A stretch of 32,000 bases of DNA from Pseudomonadota bacterium (GCA_918234285.1 CAKJXZ020000010.1:41452-73451); one strand, 5' to 3'. Positions 6,493-30,871 are shown, counted from the stretch's first letter. Numbers and translations are program-made. Notes: a model not told the origin generated them from the letters alone.

Positions 6493-6521
6493 TTGAACAG
6501 TTTTGCTTTTTGTGGTATATT
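6493..6521 (+). promoter_or_regulatory. Putative sigma70 promoter of the 348-aa orphan gene
   Basis: TTGAAC (6493-6498), 17-bp spacer, TATATT (6516-6521). This places the transcription start downstream of the tracked TTG start at 6510. Confidence 0.45.
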
Positions 6522-6542
6522 CCCCACAAAGGGATAAAGAAG

Positions 6543-7589
6543 ATGATTGATTATATTTATTCGCCGCGTTTGGTAATTGCTGCAAAACGCGATTATGCGG
6601 TTGAAGGAAATCTGTTAAATGCCGCATTTATGAGTGCCGTTATGCATGACGGCGATGCCGTGCGCAAGTTGGTACATAATGCCAGAATGGAAGGGCCGGA
6701 TATTATGCGTTCGCTTTATCGTTATTATGCCGAGCATCGTGATAAAGAAATTTTGTGGAACGAAATTAATAAAATAAATGAAAAATCGGTAAATTACGGT
6801 GAATGCGGTATTTATGCCGATACGGATAAAAACGGCAATAAAATAATTTATGATTACGGTTGCAGTTTGCGCGGCGGGGAATCGTTTTGGGCTGATTTAT
6901 CTTATTATGATAAAAGACATAATGTGTATAGCGGCAACAACGAGCAAAAAAACGTCAGTGTGGCCGAAGTTTTAAAAGATACAATCAACTTTAAGACTTA
7001 TGTGCAAAACAGGCAGCCAAAAACTCCGAACGAAAAACTTAATTTGCTGTTGCAAAATCTGTTTTATGCCAAATATTACGGCGAAAAGGAGTTCAACGAA
7101 GCGACTTATCATAAGGCGTTGCAACTGCTGAACAATGATTTGGAAAATGCTTTTGCTGCAAAACAAAAACTAAAATCCAAAGATTATATGCCGGCGATAA
7201 TTTTTTTAGATGAAAAATCGACGCAGGTTTTTGATAAAGTTGATTATTCAAGGCAACGTGTTTTTTATAAAACCCAAATCGGACAGGAAATTTTGCGTTT
7301 CGGTTATTTGACCGCGCTCGGTATTTATGAATTTGAGAAAGAGCCGATGCACGAGTTTTTGGATGAGGTAAAGTCGCAAGATTTATGGCAGGTGGCACAA
7401 AGTGTCATTACCCGAAAATTTGCGCATTGGGGATATCGCAAAAGCGTGGCGGCGAATCGGTTGTTGGAGTTGAATATAATAAAACCGCAACCACGGGAAA
7501 GGCTTTATAAACCTTATTATCAAGCCGATACGGAGCGGGCGGAATATATTAATTTATATCTTTACACTAAAACAGCTGAAAAAGAATAA
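6543..7589 (+). CDS. hypothetical protein (no family recognised)
   Basis: Long uninterrupted ORF. ATG at 6543 follows an AAGGG/AAGAAG purine tract and the promoter above. No recognisable motifs. The 3' end overlaps the convergent dgkA by 23 bp. Confidence 0.65.
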   Translation: MIDYIYSPRLVIAAKRDYAVEGNLLNAAFMSAVMHDGDAVRKLVHNARMEGPDIMRSLYRYYAEHRDKEILWNEINKINEKSVNYGECGIYADTDKNGNKIIYDYGCSLRGGESFWADLSYYDKRHNVYSGNNEQKNVSVAEVLKDTINFKTYVQNRQPKTPNEKLNLLLQNLFYAKYYGEKEFNEATYHKALQLLNNDLENAFAAKQKLKSKDYMPAIIFLDEKSTQVFDKVDYSRQRVFYKTQIGQEILRFGYLTALGIYEFEKEPMHEFLDEVKSQDLWQVAQSVITRKFAHWGYRKSVAANRLLELNIIKPQPRERLYKPYYQADTERAEYINLYLYTKTAEKE

Positions 7590-8093: not shown

Positions 8094-8474
8094 ATGGAAA
8101 AACAAAAATTGAATGTCGGCGACATCGTGTTGCGTAACAACGAGTTTTCATCGCCGAAAATGCCGATTAAAGCCAAGGGAATTGTGCTGAATCAAAAGTT
8201 TTACGTTGATTTGGATTCGCTGATTAAAACTCCGATATCCAAGGAGGAAGCGTTGGTTTACGGTCGCAAAATGAATATTCTGTTGCCTACCGAAAGGCAA
8301 ATGAATGTGATAAAGCGCAATATTAACGTGATAAATGAAAGCTTGCTCGGAATCGGCCGCGGCGATTGTCTGTTGTTTTATGACCATATTCAGGACGAAT
8401 TTTGGACCAGGCGCAGTGAAGAAACCGGCAGTGAGAGGCGACGCGTTTTGTTTATTGCCCCGATAAGAAAATAA
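8094..8474 (+). CDS. hypothetical protein (126 aa)
   Basis: ORF from ATG 8094, downstream of the promoter and therefore not the tracked start at 7968. It ends at a strong bidirectional terminator. No family recognised. Confidence 0.55.
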   Translation: MEKQKLNVGDIVLRNNEFSSPKMPIKAKGIVLNQKFYVDLDSLIKTPISKEEALVYGRKMNILLPTERQMNVIKRNINVINESLLGIGRGDCLLFYDHIQDEFWTRRSEETGSERRRVLFIAPIRK

Positions 8475-8511
8475 AAAAAATCGTATCCGGTTTAAGGATA
8501 CGATTTTTTTT
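8473..8511. terminator. Bidirectional rho-independent terminator
   Basis: A-run, then 9-bp stem ATCGTATCC / GGATACGAT with a 7-nt loop, then T-run. Confidence 0.8.
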
Positions 8512-8712: not shown

Positions 8713-8726
8713 GTACCCAAGGGTAC
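8713..8726. promoter_or_regulatory. Perfect 14-bp palindrome GTACCCAAGGGTAC in the 5' leader of the small minus-strand transcript
   Basis: Read directly. It has the same GTAC-N6-GTAC spacing as the apices of the long hairpins at 20.6-22.4 kb. Confidence 0.5.
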
Positions 8727-8889: not shown

Positions 8890-9243
8890 ATGGCAAAAAG
8901 AGCAATTATTGTAGGCAACGTTGAGCGTCTGGCCAAGTTGATTGCGCCGGAGCGTGTGCAAATCACAGTGAATGCAAACACCACCACGATTGATGGTAAG
9001 ACCATTAACGTCCGTGAGTTAATCACCTTTGAGGTGGAGACTTTTTCCTTTGAAAAACTTCCTTTTATGGAAACTCTCTGTAATTTGTCAATCGGCGACA
9101 GAGTGACGGTAACGTTTATCGAAAACGACAAGAACTGGGAAGTTTTCGATATTGTTCACGAGCCACATCTCGGTCGATCCCCTGATGATTGGTTCAGAGA
9201 TGCCCTGGAAGACATGAAATTTTGGGATAACAGAACAAAGTAA
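8890..9243 (+). CDS. hypothetical protein (117 aa)
   Basis: ORF from ATG 8890 (MAKRAIIVGN...). Its stop is followed immediately by a 13-bp-stem terminator. No family recognised. Confidence 0.55.
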   Translation: MAKRAIIVGNVERLAKLIAPERVQITVNANTTTIDGKTINVRELITFEVETFSFEKLPFMETLCNLSIGDRVTVTFIENDKNWEVFDIVHEPHLGRSPDDWFRDALEDMKFWDNRTK

Positions 9244-9285
9244 AAAATATCTGTCAGACTTAGCGGTCTGACAGATATTTTTTTT
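9242..9285. terminator. Bidirectional rho-independent terminator
   Basis: A6, then perfect 13-bp stem ATATCTGTCAGAC / GTCTGACAGATAT with a 6-nt loop, then T7. It serves the + strand ORF and the minus-strand tRNA genes. Confidence 0.85.
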
Positions 9286-9359
9286 GGTAGTCCCGAGCAG
9301 AGTTGAACTGCTGACCCATCCATGTGAAGGATATGTGATAACCGTTTCACCACGGAACT
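9285..9359 (-). tRNA. tRNA-Val (anticodon CAC)
   Basis: Hand-folded 75-nt cloverleaf on the minus strand. Acceptor AGUUCCG/CGGGACU, D-arm GUGA-AACGGUUA-UCAC, anticodon arm UAUCC-UUCACAU-GGAUG, T-arm AGCAG-UUCAACU-CUGCU, discriminator A, encoded CCA. Confidence 0.88.
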
Positions 9360-9378
9360 GTATAAAAAAGGGAAGTAT

Positions 9379-9453
9379 TGGTAGTCCCGAGCAGAGTTGA
9401 ACTGCTGACTCATCCATGTCAAGGATACGTGATAACCGTTTCACCACGGAACT
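9379..9453 (-). tRNA. tRNA-Val (anticodon GAC)
   Basis: Same cloverleaf as the neighbour and identical at 72 of 75 positions. The anticodon loop is UUGACAU. The two genes are separated by 19 nt. Confidence 0.88.
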
Positions 9454-12171: not shown

Positions 12172-12894
12172 ATGCGTACTGGTCTAATCGCAAAAAAATT
12201 AGGAATGTCCCGCATTTTTCAGGCCGACGGAACTCATGTTCCTGTAACGGTTTTGAGTGTTGAAGGTTTGCAGGTAGTTAATGTAAAGACTGCCGAAAAA
12301 GACGGATACAACGCCGTACAATTGGGTACCGGCGCCGTAAAAGCCAAAAATGTAAGCAAACCGCTTAAGGGATATTTCGCTAAGGCTAAAATTGAACCGA
12401 AAAAGAAATTGTGGGAATTCAGAGTTTCTGATGACTGCTTATTGAATGTCGGTTCGGAATTGTCGGTTGAACACTTCGTTCCGGGACAATATGTTGACGT
12501 ATGCGCCACCTCAAACGGTAAAGGCTTTGCCGGCGTAATGAAGCGTTACAATTTTGCCGGTTTGGAAGCAAGTCACGGTGTATCTATTTCTCACCGTTCG
12601 CACGGTTCTACCGGTCAAAGACAAGATCCGGGTAAAGTTTTCAAAGGTAAGAAAATGGCCGGACACATGGGTGCTGAACGCGTTACCGTTCAAAATCTCA
12701 AGGTTGTTTCGGTTGATTCTGCCAGAGGCTTGATTATGGTTAAAGGCGGCGTTCCGGGTTGCGAAAACGCATGGGTAAGAATTACCGATGCCGTTAAGAA
12801 GCCGGCTACTGTTGCTTTGCCGATGCCTGCCGGATTGAAAAAAGTTGATGAACCTGTTGTGACAGCTGAAGTTTCGGCTGAGAATGCAGAATAG
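12172..12894 (+). CDS. rplC: 50S ribosomal protein L3
   Basis: L3 sequence ([13 protein letters not shown]...VPVTVL; [11 protein letters not shown]...SHG.S.SHRS.GSTG) in canonical operon position. Confidence 0.97.
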
Positions 12895-20379: not shown

Positions 20380-20568
20380 ATGGCAACTAAAAAGAAGACA
20401 ATAAAAGTTACCAGAACTGGTAGCACAATCGGACGCCCGACTTATCAGGAAACTAACCTGAGAGGTTTGGGTTTAACCAAAACCGGTCGTACCGTTGAGT
20501 TGGAGGATACTCCTTCGGTTCGCGGAATGATTAAGAAGGTGGCCCACTTAGTCAAGGTTGAAGAATAA
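20380..20568 (+). CDS. rpmD: 50S ribosomal protein L30
   Basis: 62-aa L30 (IKVT...S.IGR.......L.GLGL......V.LEDTP..RGMI.KV.HLV.V). Confidence 0.94.
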
Positions 20569-20573
20569 AACTT

Positions 20574-20680
20574 GGGGAGAGTGCTAAGAGATTATCATAC
20601 TTGCAAATTTCTTCCTTGTGTACCGTTTTGTACACGGCGTCAGAAATTAACTGCGTAGCATAGTCTCTTATCCCTCTCTT
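20574..20680 (+). repeat. Long imperfect hairpin E1 (about 107 nt) in the rpmD-rplO spacer, apex TGTAC-CGTTTT-GTACA
   Basis: Arms are 20574-20623 and 20630-20680. Paired blocks include TAAGAGA/TCTCTTA, AATTTCT/AGAAATT and TGTGTAC/GTACACG, and the outer GGGGAGAG/CTCTCTT pairs with G-U on the + strand. It starts 6 nt after the rpmD stop and opens a 161-nt gap in an otherwise tightly packed operon. Confidence 0.7.
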
Positions 20681-20729
20681 AAAAGATTTATTTTAAGACT
20701 TGCAGAGAATTTGAAAAAAGGTGAAAGAA

Positions 20730-21182
20730 ATGAAACTTAACGAATTAAAAGACAACGAAGGCGCTACCAAAAATCGTAAACGCGTAGGTCGCGGTATCGG
20801 TTGCGGCAAGGGCAAGACTTGCGGCCTTGGTCACAAAGGTCAAAAGGCTCGTGCCGGTGGTGCTAAAATGGGATTTGAAGGCGGTCAAATGCCGCTGTAT
20901 CGTCAGTTGCCGAAGCATGGTTTTAAAAATCCGTTTGCAAAGACTTATGCCGTTGTAAACTTGGATACCATTCAAAAAGCTATTGACGGCGGCAAGTTGG
21001 ATGCCAAGTCAATCAATGTTGAATCATTGCTCAGCTCTAACGTGATTTCTAAGAAGCTGGACGGCATTCGTTTGCTCGCACGCGGTGCAGTGACCAGCAA
21101 GATTGAAATCACCGTTAATTCGGCTTCTAAAGCGGCTGTAGAGGCCGTTGAAAAAGCCGGCGGCAAAGTAAATCTCATCTAG
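20730..21182 (+). CDS. rplO: 50S ribosomal protein L15
   Basis: L15 sequence (MKLNEL....G....[24 protein letters not shown]....[15 protein letters not shown]). ATG 20730 follows AAGGTGA. The tracked GTG at 20721 is less likely. Confidence 0.96.
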
Positions 21183-21280
21183 TTGGCAGCTAATACAAAA
21201 ATTACGGGTCGGAAGTGTCCTCACGTACCTCTATGTACGCTCCGGTACTTCCGCCCTTATTTTTTATTATTTGCGCATAC
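21183..21280 (+). repeat. Long imperfect hairpin E2 (about 98 nt) directly after the rplO stop, apex CGTAC-CTCTAT-GTACG
   Basis: Paired blocks are CGGAAGT (21210-21216) with ACTTCCG (21247-21253), GGG with CCC, and an A-rich left arm (21192-21204) with a T-rich right arm (21257-21269). A third GTAC lies 6 nt further on (21245-21248). Confidence 0.7.
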
Positions 21281-21310
21281 TATCTGAGATTTACATGGAG
21301 ATATTAAAAG

Positions 21311-21338
21311 GGAGGTGCGATAAACACCTCCTTTTTTA
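21311..21338 (+). terminator. Rho-independent terminator of the S10-spc operon
   Basis: GGAGGTG-CGATAAA-CACCTCC followed by T6. Confidence 0.85.
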
Positions 21339-21352
21339 ATAACATAATAAAG

Positions 21353-21378
21353 TAAAAAAACGGTCGGATATTCCGACA
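21353..21378 (-). terminator. Rho-independent terminator of the minus-strand 262-aa gene
   Basis: On the minus strand: GTCGGA-ATA-TCCGAC, then CG and T7. Confidence 0.7.
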
Positions 21379-21394
21379 GTTTAAGATTTTATCG

Positions 21395-22183
21395 CTAACC
21401 GTTTTGTTTTTTATTGGCTTTTATTTGGGCTAAATTTCTGCCCGGCAACGCATCACGGCTGACCGTACGTTTTGGTGCTTTTGGTTTTTTAGGAAGCTGT
21501 TTATCTTGTTCCATATTTTCATCCGATGGTAATTCGGAAGAAAAAGTATAAGTTTCATATCCAAATTCAATTTTTTTACTGCCGTCATTATATATAGCTT
21601 GTTCATGTTTTGCTTCAGCATCTTTTGATGTAACGCTCCAAAAACCATCTTTTTCAATATTTTTAAAGTCTCTGTCGAATTCTTCATATTCAAAATTCTG
21701 GGTTGTTTGTTCGTGCGCTTTTGGTTCTTTACGCAGTAATTCTTCTATTTTTTTATGATTGTCTGTATGATTGTCTTCGTTTGTTGAGCTTAAGAGTGAA
21801 TCAATTTTTGCTTTAATAGCATTTCTTTCTGCTTGTTCTTCAGTGCTCATAACGAATTTTGTTTCCTCTTTACCCAGTCGGACGGTATTCGGCTTCTTTG
21901 AGCCTATTTCTTTATACTCAGGATTTGAATAAATCTCACTATGAGTCCACATATCGTGAGTTTTGTTCACCGAGGTCAGAACGGAATCCGGAGCACCTTC
22001 GGCGCCTTCTTTAAAAACAGAAATGCCTTGTGCACTCATATCTTTAACCACTTGCTCGGTTTTACTTTCTTTTTTCTTATTGCTGTCTTCTTCCAACCAT
22101 TTGTTGATAAAATAGGCTCCGGCGCTGCTTAATACGACTGCGGTCGCAACACCGGCGCATAGTTGTTTCAGATTTTTGGCCAT
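21395..22183 (-). CDS. hypothetical membrane-anchored, highly charged protein (262 aa)
   Basis: AAGGAG RBS 7 nt before the ATG. N-terminal TM helix (LCAGVATAVVLSSAGAYFI), then an E/K/D-rich sequence and a basic tail. No family recognised. It sits where rplQ would be expected downstream of rpoA. Confidence 0.7.
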   Translation of the reverse strand: MAKNLKQLCAGVATAVVLSSAGAYFINKWLEEDSNKKKESKTEQVVKDMSAQGISVFKEGAEGAPDSVLTSVNKTHDMWTHSEIYSNPEYKEIGSKKPNTVRLGKEETKFVMSTEEQAERNAIKAKIDSLLSSTNEDNHTDNHKKIEELLRKEPKAHEQTTQNFEYEEFDRDFKNIEKDGFWSVTSKDAEAKHEQAIYNDGSKKIEFGYETYTFSSELPSDENMEQDKQLPKKPKAPKRTVSRDALPGRNLAQIKANKKQNG

Positions 22184-22203
22184 GGCGATTCTCCTTTGTA
22201 AAA

Positions 22204-22248
22204 TACCTCTATTGATTAAAGAATAGAGGTAAAAATAAGTTTTGTCAA
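22204..22248 (-). promoter_or_regulatory. Putative promoter of the 262-aa gene with a perfect 10-bp inverted repeat overlapping the -10
   Basis: On the minus strand: TTGACA (22248-22243), 17-bp spacer, TATTCT (22225-22220). The inverted repeat TACCTCTATT (22204-22213) / AATAGAGGTA (22222-22231) has an 8-nt centre. Confidence 0.45.
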
Positions 22249-22331
22249 TATATTTTTACAGAGGTAATACAAGCGGATTTATACGCAATTAGCGAGCTGG
22301 CGCAGTGTAATTTCGGCGGTGTAGAATATAT

Positions 22332-22440
22332 AAAAATACGGATAATGTGATAAATACGACGAAAGCCTTTTCTCGAGGTGTACAACAATGGTACATAAGA
22401 GAAAAGGCTTTCAGGTAGTTATCCGTTATACGGATTTTTT
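22332..22440 (-). repeat. Long nested hairpin E3 (about 109 nt) directly after the rpoA stop, apex TGTAC-AACAATG-GTACA
   Basis: Perfect 14-bp core GAAAGCCTTTTCTC (22361-22374) / GAGAAAAGGCTTTC (22399-22412). Outer pairing is AAAAATACGGATAA (22332-22345) with TTATCCGT...ATTTTT (22419-22440). The right end overlaps the rpoA stop codon. On the minus strand it is followed by a T-rich tract, so it may act as the rpoA terminator. Confidence 0.7.
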
Positions 22441-23449
22441 AGAATTGATCTGAGGTACGTTTAATCAAATCCTCAATATTCTCCGGCGGCCAACCCGGTG
22501 TATCCATACCTAAGTGGATACCCATCTTAGCCAACACTTCTTTGATTTCGTTCAAAGACTTACGACCGAAGTTCGGTGTACGCAACATTTCTGCTTCCGT
22601 CTTTTGAACCAAATCGCCGATGTAAACGATATTGTCATTTTTCAAGCAGTTAGCCGAACGAACAGAAAGTTCAAGCTCATCAACCTTACGCAACAGGTTC
22701 TTGTTGAACGGCAATTCCTCACGAATATCTTCAACTTCGCTTTCCGGTTCATCAAAGTTAATGAACGGCTTAAGCTGATCTTGCAGAATGCGAGCTGCCA
22801 AAGCAACCGCATCTTCCGGAGAAACAACACCATTTGTTTCAACAATCATAGTCAGCTTATCGTAGTCCATAGCTTGATTAACGCGGGTGTTTTCAACCTT
22901 ATAAGAAACTTTCTTAACCGGAGAATAAATCGCGTCAACATTAATCAGACCGATAGGCGAATCGCTGGTCATGTTGGTAGAAGCCGGAACGTAGCCCTTA
23001 CCGGTAGTAACGGTCAATTCCATATTGATTTTAGCACCGGCATCAAGCGTGCAGATAATGTGATCCGGATTCATGATTTCAACATCATGACCGGTTTCAA
23101 TCATCGCTGCAGTGACAACGCACGGACCTTCAGCCTTTAATGTCAGTGTTTTAGCCGATTCGCTGTGAACGGCAACCGCTAATTCCTTAACATTCAATAC
23201 GATATCGGTTACATCTTCCATTACGCCTGGAATAACCGAAAATTCATGTAATACGCCGTCTATTTTAATAGCGGAAACAGCGCCGCCCTGTAACGAGGAC
23301 AACAAAACCCGACGCAAAGCATTACCGAGCGTCAGACCGAAGCCTCTTTCTAAAGGTTCAACCACAATTTTAGCTTTGTTTGTGCCTTCTGTTTGAGACA
23401 CATCCAACTTTGTTGGTTTAATCAATTCTTGCCAATTCTTTTGAATCAC
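22439..23449 (-). CDS. rpoA: DNA-directed RNA polymerase alpha subunit
   Basis: 336-aa RpoA ([22 protein letters not shown]; C-terminal domain LELSVRS.NCLK...I.YIGDLV....E.L...NFG.KSL.EI). GTG start with an AAAGGA RBS. Confidence 0.97.
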
Positions 23450-23496
23450 GGGTTTAATCCTTTTCTTTAGAAGTTATATATGCATATATTTTAAGC

Positions 23497-23527
23497 ACGA
23501 CGACAGGCCTGATTCGGCCTGTGTCGT
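23497..23527 (-). promoter_or_regulatory. Strong intercistronic stem-loop between rpsK and rpoA
   Basis: ACGACGACAGGCC / GGCCTGTGTCGT pair over 12 bp with one bulge and a 6-nt loop. There is no adjacent U-run on either strand, so it is not a canonical terminator. Confidence 0.5.
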
Positions 23528-23537
23528 AAAATAAAAA

Positions 23538-23927
23538 CTAGACGCGGCGTCTTTTTCTCAAACGGCAACCGTTGTGCGGAATAGGCGTTACATCGCGAAT
23601 CGAAGTAATGGTAAAACCGATAACCTGCAATGCTCTGATTGCGGATTCTCTGCCCGAACCCGGACCTTTTACTTCAACTTCCAATGTTTTCATGCCGTTT
23701 TCCTGAGCCTTTTTACCGGCTTCTTCGGCAGCTACCTGAGCAGCGTACGGAGTAGACTTTCTCGAACCTTTAAAACCCTGAGCGCCGGCTGTTGACCAAG
23801 AAACGGTATTGCCTTGAGCATCAGCGATGGTAACTCTTGTATTGTTAAAAGAAGAATCGATGTGAGCCACACCCGAAGTAATATTCTTTTTTTCTTTCTT
23901 TTTTCTTTGAATTGTTGCTTTAGCCAT
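23538..23927 (-). CDS. rpsK: 30S ribosomal protein S11
   Basis: S11 sequence (G.AHI.SSFNNT.VTI.D..GN...[20 protein letters not shown]...; [13 protein letters not shown]). ATG 23927 follows GGGGTGAG and matches the E. coli N-terminus (MAKA...). Confidence 0.97.
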
Positions 23928-23941
23928 TTGCACTCACCCCA

Positions 23942-24310
23942 CTATTTCTTCTTGTTCGCAATGGTTTTACGTTTACCTTTACGGGTACGAGCATTTTGTT
24001 TGGTGCTCTGACCGCGTACCGGCAGACCTTTACGATGTCTTAAACCACGATAGCAACCCAAATCCATCAATCTCTTGATGTTGGTACCGACTTCACGGCG
24101 AAGTTCACCTTCAACCAGATAATCGCTATCGATAACTTCACGAATCTTCATTACTTCATCATCGGATAAATCGTTAACGCGACGGTTAAGATCGATTCCG
24201 GACTTAGAGCAAATGTCTTGAGCAGACTTGCGTCCAATGCCGAAGATATAAGTCAGTGCGACTTCAATTCTCTTGGCACTTGGAATATTTACACCAGCTA
24301 TACGAGCCAA
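23942..24310 (-). CDS. rpsM: 30S ribosomal protein S13
   Basis: S13 sequence ([11 protein letters not shown].....LTYI.GIG...A..I; YRG.RHR.GLPVRGQ.TK.NART.KG). TTG start codon with GGAG 7 nt upstream. Confidence 0.97.
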
Positions 24311-24379
24311 ATTTAATCTCCATTATTTAATAAATTAAAACATTCAAAAAGTTGATCACCACTTTTCAAAATTAAGCGG

Positions 24380-24408
24380 ATTATAGGCACGATATTTATC
24401 AGAGTCAA
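24380..24408 (-). promoter_or_regulatory. Near-consensus sigma70 promoter of rpsM-rpsK-rpoA
   Basis: On the minus strand: TTGACT (24408-24403), 17-bp spacer, TATAAT (24385-24380), in the 183-bp adk-rpsM spacer. Confidence 0.6.
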
Positions 24409-24493
24409 CACCTTTTTGTAAAAAAATTGAATTTTTTTTGCGATTTTAACGATTTTTTAAAAAACACCGCGAAAAACGCCGGTTTTAGGGCAA

Positions 24494-25174
24494 TTACCTA
24501 TCGTCTTCCAAACCGAGTACGTCGCTTATTTTGCGGCTGACTGCATCGATAGTGCCGGTACCGTCTACTGTTTTGAGCAAACCACGCTTTTCAAAAAAAG
24601 GAATAGTCGGGTAAGTAAGCAAACGATAGTTAATTAGGCGATTCTGCACGGTTGTACGGTTATCATCTTTACGGCGAGCGAATTCCGTGCCGCCGCAAAC
24701 GTCGCAAACTCCGTAAATTTGCGGTTTTTGAAACTTATCGTGATAGCCGGCGCCGCATTTCATGCAGGCATAACGCCCTAAAATACGTTCCATGATGATT
24801 TCATCCGGTACTTGAATTTCTAAAACCGCCGACAGCTTAATATTCTGTTCGGCCACCAAATCTTCCAAAACCTCGGCTTGCGGCAGAGTACGCGGAAAAC
24901 CGTCCAAAATAAAGCCGTGTGCGCAGTCCGGCTCGGATATGCGGCTTTTTACCATTTCGATAATCATTTCGTCATTAGCAAATTCACCGCGCTCAAGTGT
25001 TGCTTTCAGTTCACGTCCGAGCGGCGTATCTTTTTCGGCAAACTGGCGCAGCATTTCGCCGGTAGATAAGTGCGCAATATGAGTCTTTTCTTTTAAAATA
25101 CGAGCCTGTGTACCTTTGCCGCAACCGGGAGCACCGGTAAATACAACAAACAGACCTTCTTTGGCGTGCGTCAT
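24494..25174 (-). CDS. adk: adenylate kinase (long form with Cys4 lid)
   Basis: P-loop GAPGCGKGTQ, the LSTGEMLR motif, and a lid with CMKCG...CDVCGG. Confidence 0.95.
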   Translation of the reverse strand: MTHAKEGLFVVFTGAPGCGKGTQARILKEKTHIAHLSTGEMLRQFAEKDTPLGRELKATLERGEFANDEMIIEMVKSRISEPDCAHGFILDGFPRTLPQAEVLEDLVAEQNIKLSAVLEIQVPDEIIMERILGRYACMKCGAGYHDKFQKPQIYGVCDVCGGTEFARRKDDNRTTVQNRLINYRLLTYPTIPFFEKRGLLKTVDGTGTIDAVSRKISDVLGLEDDR

Positions 25175-25177
25175 CGT

Positions 25178-26527
25178 TTAACGGTTCTTCTTACTGATTA
25201 ATGCCGCCTTTTTGAGCAAACCTTCGTATTGGTAGGCAATTAAGTGCGATTGAACCTGATTTACGAAATCCATGGTAACCTGGACCACGATAAGCAGGGT
25301 AGTGCCGCCCAAAACAAACGGAACACCGACTCGGCTGATTAAAATTTCCGGCAAAATGCAGAGGCAGACCAAATAAACGGAAGCTACCATCGTCAGACGC
25401 GTAATTACGTAGTCGAGATATTCTGCGGTATTTTTACCCGGACGAATACCTGCGATAAAGCCACCGTGTTTCTTCAGGTTTTCAGCGGTTTCTTCCGGAT
25501 TAAATACCACGCCGGTGTAGAAAAACGTAAAGAACAGGATTAAGAAGGCATATAAAGCCAAATACAACGGCTGACCATGACCGAGTAACTGGCTCAAAGT
25601 TTGTACCCAACCCGGACCTTGTTCGGCCGAAAGATTGGCTATCGTAATCGGCAACAACAGCAAAGAGCTGGCAAAAATCGGCGGAATAACACCGGTCGGG
25701 TTAATTTTCAGCGGCAAGTGCGAACTGTCGGCTGCAGTTATGCGCATCCCCATTTGGCGCTTCGGATATTGAATCACGATACGACGTTGTGCGCGCTCAA
25801 CAAACACGATGACATAGATAAGAGCTAAAGCCATAATCAGCAGCATAATGATGGTGCCGAAAGACATTTGACCGGCACGACCTAATTCAAAAGTCTGCGC
25901 TAAAGCGTTCGGAATGTTGGCAATAATACCTACCGTAATGATAAGTGACGAACCGTTGCCGACGCCGCGCTGGGTGATTTGATCACCGAGCCAAACGATA
26001 AACATGGTGCCGCCAACCAAAGATACGATGGTCGAAAACTTAAATGCAAAGCTAGGAATCAATACAGCGGAAGCACCGTTGGCACCGGAAATGCTCAGCA
26101 AACCGACGGCAATACCGTAACCTTGAATAATCGTAATCAAAACCGTCAGCATCTTGGTGTAGTGTACGATTTTGCGGTGTCCGGCTTCACCTTCTTTTTT
26201 GAGAGCTTGCAAAGACGGAATAACCGACTGTCCGAGCTGAATGATAATGGATGCGGAAATGTAAGGCATAATGTTGAGGGCAAAAATCGTCATACGCTCC
26301 AACGCACCGCCGGAAAACATATTGAACATACCTAAAATACCACCCGAGTTACGGCTGAACATTTCAGCCAAAACGCCGGCATTAATACCCGGAAGCGGGA
26401 TAAACGTTCCCAAACGGAACACGATTAATGCCATAACGGTAAACCATAATCTTTTCTTAAGTTCTTCAGCCTTACCAAAGGCAGACATATCTAAGCCTGC
26501 TGCCATTTTTTCTGCTAACGAAGCCAT
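25178..26527 (-). CDS. secY: preprotein translocase subunit SecY
   Basis: Polytopic membrane protein with SecY signatures (RLWFT...IFRLGTFIPLPGI; ...GGTSLLIVV-like GGTTLLIVVQV). ATG 26527 follows AAAGGA. The tracked start at 26557 is probably too far upstream. Confidence 0.96.
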   Translation of the reverse strand: MASLAEKMAAGLDMSAFGKAEELKKRLWFTVMALIVFRLGTFIPLPGINAGVLAEMFSRNSGGILGMFNMFSGGALERMTIFALNIMPYISASIIIQLGQSVIPSLQALKKEGEAGHRKIVHYTKMLTVLITIIQGYGIAVGLLSISGANGASAVLIPSFAFKFSTIVSLVGGTMFIVWLGDQITQRGVGNGSSLIITVGIIANIPNALAQTFELGRAGQMSFGTIIMLLIMALALIYVIVFVERAQRRIVIQYPKRQMGMRITAADSSHLPLKINPTGVIPPIFASSLLLLPITIANLSAEQGPGWVQTLSQLLGHGQPLYLALYAFLILFFTFFYTGVVFNPEETAENLKKHGGFIAGIRPGKNTAEYLDYVITRLTMVASVYLVCLCILPEILISRVGVPFVLGGTTLLIVVQVTMDFVNQVQSHLIAYQYEGLLKKAALISKKNR

Positions 26528-26756
26528 TTTATCATCCTTTAAAAAATTTAAAACCAAATAAGGGGCACTTTTTGCCCATTGCCGATAATTTAATACATAA
26601 AAATAAAATTAATGCAACAAAAATTTGTTTATCCTCAATATTTTGTTGATGACAAGCGAATCGGCATGATTAAAAGAGGATTTTTGTTATGTGTGGCAAT
26701 TATTCCCGTTCATCGGGGTTGCGTTTTTTGAACACGGTAAATTCGGCTTTAAAGTT

Positions 26757-27491
26757 TTATTTAATTTCTTGAGTATATTTCTTTTTAATTATTTTTACGA
26801 TGTCATTGACCTCAACGGACTTTGTATCGTCGGTTGTTTTTTGCTTTTGCATCTTAGCTATACGATTTTTGACCATTTCAAAAGTTTGCGGTTGCATACT
26901 CTTTTCATCGATTTTTTGGCGGCTGCGGGTTTTTTGAGTTGTTTGAACGGAAACACCGCCTTTGCTTAAAGAGGCGAGTTGTTTTTCTTTTTGGGCGTTT
27001 TCGTATTCGGTTGAAGCGCTGACGGCATAACCGATGGCGCAAGCCGCATAAGAACAAGCCAGATAAGCGGGTAGTCCGGTTGCCGCGGCGGAAACCGCCA
27101 AACCGCCGGTTAAAGCCGCAAAACCGGACGACAGTAGAATCTCAAATTTTTTCTTTTTAGGGAGTTCGCGCCATTTATCGCGGAATTTTGTTTTTCCCGA
27201 ATCGGTTAAATCTTTTAATGCGGCCAAAGATGCTTTAGGATTTCTGTTAAGTTCGGAATTGAGTTTGGCTGATGAGTGGCTGGAAAGGGCTGCCATTGAC
27301 ATACCCAAAAAGCCGATGAGAGGACCGCCGCAATATTGCGCAACTAAGGCAGACGGTGCTAGTGCCGGCGCCACGGCCGCAACCAACCCGCCGACGGTCA
27401 TACCGCCCCACAACAGGGCATTTGCTCCCCAAAAGGCAACGCTTCGTTTATCTTCGGTGGAAAATTTTTTCCAGTTATCCTTAAAACTCAA
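26757..27491 (-). CDS. hypothetical membrane protein with an internal two-fold repeat (244 aa)
   Basis: TTG start preceded by GAGGAG at 7 nt. Two similar modules, FKDNWKKF...ALLWGGMTVGG and FRDKWREL...AALTGGLAVSA, are each followed by Gly/Ala-rich hydrophobic segments. A K/Q/T-rich tail follows. No family recognised. Confidence 0.65.
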   Translation of the reverse strand: MSFKDNWKKFSTEDKRSVAFWGANALLWGGMTVGGLVAAVAPALAPSALVAQYCGGPLIGFLGMSMAALSSHSSAKLNSELNRNPKASLAALKDLTDSGKTKFRDKWRELPKKKKFEILLSSGFAALTGGLAVSAAATGLPAYLACSYAACAIGYAVSASTEYENAQKEKQLASLSKGGVSVQTTQKTRSRQKIDEKSMQPQTFEMVKNRIAKMQKQKTTDDTKSVEVNDIVKIIKKKYTQEIK

Positions 27492-30242: not shown

Positions 30243-30335
30243 TTTATTTCCTTAATTTTAAGCTTAAAATTTTCTCACTGACGCGCAGATTATAACAAAC
30301 TTTGGCGCTTGTCTATATTTATTTACAAAAAAATA

Positions 30336-30363
30336 TTGACAAATTACACAAATGCGCTATAAA
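30336..30363 (+). promoter_or_regulatory. Putative sigma70 promoter of the secreted orphan gene
   Basis: TTGACA (30336-30341), 16-bp spacer, TATAAA (30358-30363). It lies inside the tracked ORF, so translation starts downstream. Confidence 0.45.
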
Positions 30364-30379
30364 ACCGTCAACAAATCTT

Positions 30380-30871
30380 ATGATTATGGTAAAAAGAATA
30401 ATTATTTTGGCAGTTTGCTTTATGCTCTCTGCCGTCGCCGCTTCCGCTCAGCGCGACAAGTTTTTTATTGAGCGTGATTCAGTGAAAATTGCCGTAAAGG
30501 ACGCCCCGAGGTCTGAACATCAGCGTTTTTTGTACGGTCTGTACAAAGACGGTAAAGAGCTTCTTCCCATGGTTTATGATATGGTTGAGGAGCGCTCCGT
30601 TAAGCTGATGGCCTTCTTTAAGGATACGGAGATTTTGGTCTACGACACAGACGGAACTTTGGTAGACAAAGCTGTTTTGGAGTTCCCGATTGATCGCCAC
30701 TCCTTTGTGCGATTTGAGGAAATTGATGGCCGCCGCGGTATAAGCGCGTATGAGCTGGTGGTATATTACAACGACAACGATTGGATATATCAACCCATAG
30801 GCACTTACTACCGGAAAGGTCGCCATCTCTACAGAGTTATCATTACCACCGAATTGGAGCTGATAAAGTAA
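30380..30871 (+). CDS. hypothetical secreted protein (signal peptide)
   Basis: From ATG 30380 (or 30386): MIMVKRIIILAVCFMLSAVAASA/QRD is a classical signal peptide with an A-x-A site. No family recognised. Confidence 0.6.
   Translation: MIMVKRIIILAVCFMLSAVAASAQRDKFFIERDSVKIAVKDAPRSEHQRFLYGLYKDGKELLPMVYDMVEERSVKLMAFFKDTEILVYDTDGTLVDKAVLEFPIDRHSFVRFEEIDGRRGISAYELVVYYNDNDWIYQPIGTYYRKGRHLYRVIITTELELIK

Follow-up and report, generated by a model that had tools for sequence, protein, structure and literature searches.

Long structured palindromic repeats behind stop codons in uncultured rumen and gut Alphaproteobacteria

In a 32,000-nt stretch of DNA from a Pseudomonadota bacterium (GCA_918234285.1, CAKJXZ020000010.1:41452-73451; hereafter the window, from whose first letter all coordinates are counted unless another locus is named), three long hairpins, E1, E2 and E3, adjoin the stop codons of rpmD, rplO and rpoA, respectively. 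Are these hairpins related, and what are they? The original prediction, made from the sequence alone, had proposed either a structured element selected for its shape or a palindromic mobile family resembling repetitive extragenic palindromic (REP) sequences, BIMEs or Rickettsia palindromic elements (RPEs). Both parts of this proposal found support together, as further copies were found in relatives, their helices covary and the family behaves in a REP-like manner. The comparison used 80 related loci fetched around rplO (20-kb regions; 1.3 Mb together with the window) and a few metagenome contigs; L-numbers denote such loci. The window's nearest public relatives are uncultured rumen and gut Alphaproteobacteria known from metagenome-assembled genomes, among which RUG13901 has a 99% identical ribosomal protein L15.

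Three hairpins of one family

All three hairpins were present where they had been predicted, each adjoining a stop codon. E1, a type-A hairpin in the rpmD–rplO spacer (20575-20680, + strand; covariance-model match 20571-20681), carries the apex TGTAC-CGTTTT-GTACA (20619-20634, + strand), and its helix P1 begins 6 nt past the rpmD stop. E3, also type A, lies directly behind rpoA on the minus strand (22332-22439; model match 22331-22443), with the apex TGTAC-CATTGTT-GTACA when read on that strand (22379-22395), a U run after its 3' arm and the perfect 14-bp core that had been noticed earlier (22361-22374 paired with 22399-22412); the last A of the rpoA stop codon (22439-22441, minus strand) is its first paired base. 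The limits originally given for E2 (21183-21280) were too small. E2 is a longer type-B relative of ~127 nt (21168-21294, + strand), in which GTAAATCTCA (21168-21177, the last rplO codons) pairs with TGAGATTTAC (21285-21294) to form the outer stem, and the rplO stop codon TAG (21180-21182) sits in a conserved TCTAG internal loop. Its apex, CGTAC-CTCTAT-GTACG, is followed by a third GTAC at 21245-21248 (21224-21248 in all, + strand).

RNA folding of each element was compared with that of 200 dinucleotide shuffles on both strands, and no shuffle folded as well as E1, E2 or E3 on either strand. On the plus strand, E1 folded at −39.0 kcal/mol (z = −5.1; −4.9 on the minus strand) and E2 at −32.8 kcal/mol (z = −4.5; −4.6 on the minus strand). 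E3 reached −36.4 kcal/mol on its sense, minus strand (z = −7.8), and z = −8.4 on the plus strand. The window contains 7 copies of the apex pattern GTAC-N5-8-GTAC where 0.55 ± 0.67 would be expected (~13-fold over), among them pairs at 12316 and 30532 that lie inside coding sequence.

A covariance model, R1, was built from 37 long-hairpin copies. With filters off, R1 found only E1 (100.8 bits, E = 4.5e−26), E3 (89.2 bits, E = 9.8e−23) and E2 (21.3 bits, E = 0.0036) in the window. The arms of the three elements had been described as unrelated to each other; instead, E1 and E3 fit a single model and E2 scores as a divergent relative. A short palindrome at 8713-8726, which had been listed as a fourth occurrence, was not matched and is not a family member. 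The model is orientation-specific, with sense copies at ~100 bits and their antisense strands at ~25–33 bits (22.9 bits for E1 and 33.3 bits for E3). The covariance search of relatives that had been suggested as a check returned many further copies, namely 82 non-overlapping matches in the 1.3 Mb of related loci and window, and extra copies were found in unrelated metagenome contigs. R1 can be regarded as specific, because no match above 27 bits was obtained in 80 viral loci (641 kb), all of which carry the apex pattern. E1, E2 and E3 are thus copies of one family of long structured palindromic repeats of uncultured rumen and gut Alphaproteobacteria. The family also accounts for the enrichment of GTAC-N5-8-GTAC: 62 of 114 occurrences in the 1.3 Mb fall inside the 8.6 kb occupied by elements, and most others are conserved coding sites.

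Copies are ~105–130 nt long and contain ~40 paired positions in four to five helices. Alignment of the 37 copies revealed short islands of conserved sequence: a foot loop, TCTAR opposite YTATC; a middle island, CTAC-TTG opposite GCGTA(G/T)C; and an apex island, CTYRTGTAC-loop-GTACAC.NCG. From a MAFFT alignment of the same copies made independently of the model, RNAalifold derived a structure of 27 pairs, with compensatory changes at 22. The same picture emerged from 59 high-scoring copies aligned by fitting to R1, in which standard pairs filled 93.9% of cells, compared with 36–52% when the 3' partners were slid by 1–3 columns; double-sided changes were seen at 24 of the 27 pairs, and the covariation score was 0.61 as opposed to ~0.12 in the slid controls.

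At the apex, the UGUA/UACA pairs are invariant in 58–59 of the 59 copies. The fifth pair, formed by the C and G of GTAC, varies while remaining paired (CG in 45 copies, GC in 5, UA in 4 and AU in 1), as in the variants TGTAG..CTACA and TGTAT..ATACA, and GTAC itself is therefore not required. The GTAC apex that had been noticed is thus present in E1, E2 and E3, but it is UGUA/UACA that is constant family-wide. The apex spacing ranges from 5 to 8 nt across the family (1 nt in one L001 copy); together with the replacement of GTAC by compensated GTAG/CTAC or GTAT/ATAC, this does not fit the CRP/FNR-type site (GTA-N8-TAC) that had been suggested. A restriction, methylation or duplex binding site at GTAC was also considered and was rejected because the apex helix covaries. 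In the closest relative, L001, both type-A orthologs are altered at the apex: the E1 ortholog (L001 9850-9960) has one apex pair broken (TGTAG..GTACA), and the E3 ortholog (L001 11791-11897) has a reduced apex loop, with GTACCGTAC replacing GTACCATTGTTGTAC and a GTAC spacing of 1 nt. Even over short time scales, then, the apex can change.

The architecture comprises an outer stem that varies between loci, an inner stem of 12–14 bp that is kept in structure only, and the invariant apex helix, UGUA-N / N'-UACA, which closes a U-rich loop (6–8 nt). One or two pyrimidine-pyrimidine internal loops, TC opposite TC with flanks TA(A/C) and (T/G)TA, recur approximately one helical turn apart. In orthologous copies behind rpoA, feet and apexes are nearly identical, and the inner stems of 13–14 bp between them differ but are perfectly paired. 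The possibility of a hypervariable inner stem requiring a templated mechanism was considered and rejected, as the rpoA orthologs differ stepwise, which fits ordinary compensatory evolution.

Type B is a longer and heterogeneous group that includes E2. When 13 type-B copies were aligned with MAFFT and folded with RNAalifold, the apex helix alone was recovered, because the set is too heterogeneous for more. The membership of E2 therefore rests on the shared architecture, its weak R1 score and the replacement of the interior at the same site: the rplO site of L019, L031, L015 and L041 has the outer stem of E2 with a type-A interior (40–98 bits).

When the window was searched with Rfam 15 at gathering thresholds, two tRNAs alone matched. 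At E ≤ 10, nothing overlapped E1 or E3, and over the 3' part of E2 there were only chance-level matches (E 3–10), well under the gathering thresholds. Literature searches found no description of this hairpin element. In agreement with the original prediction, which had recognized no described RNA family, the family is absent from Rfam and previously uncatalogued. It adds a structured motif with ~60 high-scoring copies and strong covariation to a poorly known group of uncultured bacteria.

Placement behind genes and the strand under selection

In 11 of 13 gene contexts, a copy lies in sense orientation with its start 0–9 nt from the upstream stop codon, and in nearly all full-length copies the R1 start falls between −9 and +2 nt of the stop of the upstream gene on the same strand. 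The upstream genes are rpmD, rplO, rpoA, adk, trmB, rplQ, an Hsp33-like gene and a Trp-tRNA-ligase-like gene in the related loci, and rpoC, recR and the PFOR gene in the metagenome contigs. Among related loci holding both rpmD and rplO, 32 have an element in the spacer, and rpoA is followed by homologous copies in L028, L029, L035, L059, L066, L068, L071 and L073. Site density was 0.71 per 10 kb in the ribosomal protein cluster, compared with 0.22 elsewhere in the sampled loci (3- to 4-fold). At rplO, the encoded C terminus reads ..GKVNIA* in loci lacking an element and ..VNLI*, ..VNLV* or ..VNFA* in those with one; the 5' end of the element therefore supplies the last codons and the stop.

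The canonical intrinsic terminator of rplO, GGGAGGTGCGATAAACACCTCC followed by TTTTTT (21310-21337, + strand), lies 15 nt beyond E2 and is not a family member. Because of this separate terminator, E2 lies inside the 3' untranslated region (UTR) and is not itself the terminator. The same layout of element then terminator occurs at L007, L014, L015, L019, L045, L063, L142 and L149, and canonical terminators were found downstream of the element at rplO, rplQ, rpoC and PFOR; most copies precede a canonical terminator of this kind. These findings speak against the simple terminator role that had been among the suggestions, and it is very unlikely that the hairpins are intrinsic terminators or attenuators of an ordinary kind, only exceptionally long, that share an apex by chance. 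Such an origin would suit E3 and other rpoA-type copies, which have an A run before and a T run after the outer stem, the GC-rich inner stem of E2 with T-rich sequence after it, and the tandem copies found behind highly expressed genes. Against this, E1-type copies stand within an operon, mostly lacking a U run (E1 itself has none), conserved internal loops and a conserved apex are not features of terminators, and a terminator scan reported no whole element, only a short sub-hairpin at the foot of E3 on the plus (antisense) strand.

Since the copies stand directly behind a stop codon, mostly in sense orientation and upstream of a terminator or the next cistron, they are probably co-transcribed as part of the mRNA. 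The explanation we favor, on which our confidence is evenly balanced, is of a large structured repeat, similar to REPs and to the REP doublets known as REPINs, that would be transcribed along with its neighboring genes, function as a hairpin in the 3' UTR or between cistrons, and also spread at the DNA level. The transcribed element would form a stable stem-loop, which could serve as a barrier to exonucleases, as a processing site for a double-strand RNase, or both, and might thereby set the survival of the upstream and downstream message. The invariant apex and the internal loops would probably be recognized by a protein. Should the hairpins act on mRNA in this way, they would be a lineage-wide means of setting relative expression, both within and downstream of the operons for ribosomal proteins, RNA polymerase and ATP synthase.

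Several observations weigh against this explanation. The copy in L156 lies antisense between atpB and atpE, and further antisense copies are found at the 5' ends of genes for type IV pilin-like proteins. Neither a partner protein nor a mobilizing enzyme was found in the sampled loci. The remainder concern the strand itself: among the 59 copies, the antisense strand is predicted to be the more stable in 45 with RNA parameters and in 53 with DNA parameters, and isolated mismatches on the sense strand are A-C more often than G-T (56 versus 21) and pyrimidine-pyrimidine more often than purine-purine (166 versus 49). The original prediction had taken G-T mismatches as favoring the plus strand, which holds for E1 but not for the family, in which the antisense strand folds better. 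The TC/TC loops read as tandem G-A pairs on the antisense strand. Orientation, adjacency to stop codons and the U-rich loop all favor sense RNA. The selected form may be RNA or single-stranded DNA, and the better folding of the antisense strand weighs against settling on RNA.

The constancy of the sequence islands amid varying helices, the spacing of the internal loops by about one helical turn, the enrichment at ribosomal protein, RNA polymerase, atp, adk and PFOR contexts and the lack of an Rfam match would also be expected of a dedicated cis-regulatory RNA, a new class of riboregulator in which a protein reads the UGUA/UACA apex and the TC/TC loops and so coordinates the translation, transcription and energy operons. 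We consider this quite unlikely, as no candidate protein was found in the sampled loci, both orientations occur, including at the 5' ends of pilin-like genes, and degenerate arrays and half copies (see below) are more typical of repeats than of regulators. The long element is, moreover, missing from the rpmD–rplO site in some close relatives. Every one of these has a shorter hairpin directly after the rpmD stop; in the L018 group, this hairpin consists of E1-type outer helices closed by a 6-nt loop instead of the ~64-nt core.

Turnover at the DNA level and likeness to known repeats

Directly behind rpoA or adk, some related loci hold tandem arrays with a period of ~86 nt. Tandem arrays include copies that keep the apex and 3' arm but have a non-complementary 5' arm. 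The arrays also contain runs of 3' halves and chimeras joined at the apex, with arms from different elements. GTAC...GTAC sites are numerous in the 80 loci, with pyrimidine-rich loops. Synteny breaks at the elements as well. By blastn, homology of the window to L003 and L004 stops at 21295, the 3' end of E2, and homology to L028 stops at 22332, the last base of E3; the intervening segment, 21295-22331, was found only in the window, L001 and L002. The original prediction had placed the elements at three disrupted gene junctions. In fact the rpmD–rplO order is canonical, with merely a long spacer, whereas synteny does end at the 3' ends of E2 and E3. The rplO–secY junction is broken in many relatives, and the junctions of the spc and alpha operons are rearrangement hot spots across the clade; the odd ribosomal operon junctions of the window are the normal state in this lineage. 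Turnover at the DNA level coincides with local rearrangements. In our favored explanation, a copying or recombination process would spread and reshuffle the family; its traces would be the arrays, half copies and chimeras as well as the rearrangement breakpoints where elements end. As the elements fall at such breakpoints and at contig ends, they are relevant to the assembly and comparison of these metagenome-assembled genomes.

Dispersed copies, arrays, 3' halves and apex-joined chimeras would also be produced by purely selfish, non-autonomous mobile DNA, akin to REPINs or miniature inverted-repeat transposable elements, that folds as a single-stranded DNA hairpin for a HUH transposase of the REP-associated tyrosine transposase (RAYT) or IS200 type and has no host function; the sites behind stop codons would then be merely tolerated or targeted positions. 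This is possible but doubtful. It would explain the synteny breaks exactly at element ends, the strand-asymmetric folding, the swapping of interiors at rplO while the locus-specific outer stem is retained, and the short and long hairpin forms at rpmD, which differ by the ~64-nt core. In one subfamily, inverted sequences at the termini are conserved, AAAAACTCGTCTAAYGG ... RTTATCCGAGTTTTT, and compensatory changes are also seen in REPINs (PMC3116915). On the other hand, copies at the rpmD–rplO and rpoA sites have been kept, fully compensated, across relatives whose L15 is only ~70–75% identical; the apparent density is low, with sites gathered at highly expressed operons; target-site duplications were not seen; and the conserved part is the apex, whereas in REPINs it is the ends. 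A weak test, tblastn of an IS200 TnpA sequence against 1.7 Mb of related loci, found no IS200- or RAYT-like open reading frame (ORF) and gave one spurious match, to nadE. If the family is mobile DNA, it would constitute a REP-like system with inverted conservation, of the apex and not the ends, and with no known transposase, and would bear on the origin and persistence of such repeats.

The loss of homology precisely at the 3' termini of E2 and E3, chimeric copies joined at the apex, and opposite-strand pilin-like genes enclosed by elements behind rpoA or rplO would also be expected if the hairpins were sites of site-specific recombination for cassette exchange or inversion, for example of the orphan gene between E2 and E3 or of the bracketed pilin-like genes. 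Integron attC sites, which likewise keep structure over sequence and follow ORFs, have at their foot the complementary boxes R'' (RYYYAAC) and R' (GTTRRRY) and occur in the context of an integrase. The resemblance extends to the better folding of one strand and the bracketing of genes. In some copies GTCTAAC fits R'', but the 3' side reads (A/G)TTATCC and does not match GTTRRRY; there is no integrase or cassette array at the family loci, where the flanking genes are ribosomal or core housekeeping genes. We regard such a role as highly improbable, given also that no recombinase gene was seen in the sampled loci, that an apex spacer of variable length and sequence is unfavorable for the core site of a tyrosine recombinase, and that most copies lie at stable orthologous housekeeping junctions.

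Several known repeats were compared with the family. ERIC/IRU elements of enterobacteria (127 bp) and Correia/NEMIS elements of Neisseria are imperfect palindromes of 100–150 bp in transcribed intergenic regions, which fold in mRNA and can change its stability or be cut by RNases. They share sequence over their full length, with terminal inverted repeats and target duplications, whereas the present family has short islands and covarying helices; their hosts are also unrelated to this lineage. RPEs are typically inserted in frame inside genes. They are alphaproteobacterial palindromes that enter coding sequence, as the family does at the rplO end and in the leaders of pilin-like ORFs, but the family is almost always extragenic; this comparison is by description only. 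RPEs are mentioned in PMC3733652, and repeat-unit (RU) elements are treated in PMC2759123. Intrinsic terminators resemble the family in forming a hairpin after a stop codon, with A/U runs flanking some copies, but the family is longer, has conserved loops and is followed by a separate canonical terminator, and a U run accompanies only E3-type copies.

The closest likeness is to REPs, which are 20–40 bp long with 8–9-bp stems and 4–5-nt loops, follow the upstream ORF at less than 20 nt from its 3' end, with a variable distance to the next ORF, may supply stop codons, lie at ORF N termini or cluster, and reach high copy numbers (Di Nocera et al. 2013, PMC3733652). Like them, the family consists of dispersed, plausibly transcribed palindromes that lie near the end of the upstream ORF, as the narrow range of R1 starts and the rplO stop within the element illustrate, and that also occur at ORF N termini and form clusters. 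In size it differs, at 105–130 nt and with an inner module of ~70 nt replacing the loop. At one end, the REP palindrome bears a tag of four unpaired nucleotides (GTAG or CGTC/TGTC/CCTC), and CGTC-tagged REPs are mostly alphaproteobacterial, with no known transposase (PMC3733652). Family copies of the rpoA, adk, trmB and rpoC type carry CTCGTCTAA, in which CG is paired but TC is not (variants CGTA, CATC and TGTC), and one subfamily reads CGTC-TA... at the foot and ...TA-TCC on the other side; rpmD-type copies, including E1, carry GTGC(A/T)(A/G)A and no CGTC. Conservation in the family is strongest at the UGUA/UACA apex, unlike in REPs. Whereas REPs usually exceed 100 copies per genome (Nunvar et al. 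2010, PMC2817692), the copy number of the family appears modest, at ~0.2 sites per 10 kb outside the ribosomal cluster, an estimate from 20-kb regions around rplO and a few metagenome contigs.

REPINs, which are REP doublets that form ~100-nt hairpins and are mobilized by RAYTs (Bertels & Rainey 2011, PMC3116915), resemble the family as extragenic hairpins of ~100 nt with compensatory changes, singlets, half copies, ordered clusters and vertical persistence. REPINs have invariant 16-mers at their ends and a variable middle, and the family shows the reverse; in addition, its arms are not small palindromes themselves, its placement at stop codons is non-random and no RAYT was found in the weak tblastn test of 1.7 Mb. 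A dimer of small REPs was considered as the origin of the hairpins and was rejected, as the arms are not self-complementary. The family is a large variant of REP-like intergenic repeats rather than a new kind of system. A bolder reading, which we consider unlikely, sees in the modular nested hairpin a new class of structured element, whose apex and periodic loops would be read by a dedicated protein. On this reading, the element would serve as a 3'-end mark on those operons with the highest expression (ribosomal proteins, RNA polymerase, ATP synthase and PFOR), tuning their output, and would propagate by entering or replacing the interiors of hairpins; such propagation would explain the locus-specific outer stems, including those made of coding sequence.

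Gene order and other features of the window

The S10-spc ribosomal protein genes run on the plus strand from rpsJ (11808) through rpmD (20380-20568, stop 20566-20568) and rplO (ATG at 20731, to 21182). On the minus strand, rpoA, rpsK, rpsM, adk and secY occupy 22439-26557, with an ORF of unknown function and then alaS beyond. Between the 3' ends of E2 and E3, the lineage-specific segment 21295-22331 contains the rplO terminator, a convergent terminator (21363-21377) belonging to the orphan gene, the orphan gene itself (21395-22183, minus strand) and its promoter-like site, TTGACA-17-TATTCT (22248-22220, minus strand). The orphan gene encodes 262 amino acids with an N-terminal hydrophobic segment and, among the related loci, occurs only in the two closest relatives, L001 and L002. 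Pfam gave no match for it, nor for the ORFs at 26757-27491 (minus strand) and 30302-30871 (plus strand).

In the window, and in most relatives whose locus reaches rpoA, the gene after rpoA is not rplQ; among the loci in which the ORFs downstream of rpoA were read, only L063 has rplQ there. In L004, the segment of the window from alaS to a 189-amino acid ORF is inverted and lies directly behind rplO.

A large family of paralogous genes for type IV pilin-like proteins of ~195–220 amino acids was seen in L013-L080, L141 and L142 (for example L026 11115-12071, L028 17709-18335 and L032 10564-11265), often directly downstream of rplO, adk or rpoA. The N terminus of these proteins is nearly invariant, G-RSMIEMLGVLAIIGVLSVGGIAGYSKAM, and Pfam returned no match for them. 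Some have a short canonical leader, M-x-x-N-Q-S-G; others have none and are joined either to other sequence or to the antisense side of a hairpin. L026 contains two divergent pilin-like copies that form 104-nt inverted repeats (81% complementary) around 749 nt, a layout that could permit switching by inversion of a promoter or leader.

Elsewhere in the window, a 359-amino acid ORF (6510-7589, plus strand) matched the Pfam family Minor_capsid_1 below threshold (20.9 bits; cut-off 25). Two adjacent tRNA genes (9288-9453, minus strand; 53 and 56 bits with the Rfam tRNA model) lie beside one of two perfect palindromes with A8/T8 flanks, at 8473-8511 (AAAAAAAATCGTATCC..GGATACGATTTTTTTT) and 9242-9283 (AAAAAATATCTGTCAGAC..GTCTGACAGATATTTTTT), which resemble bidirectional terminators and are not related to the hairpin family. 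Upstream of rho, ~400 nt at 1330-1750 are very AT-rich and contain many overlapping inverted repeats.

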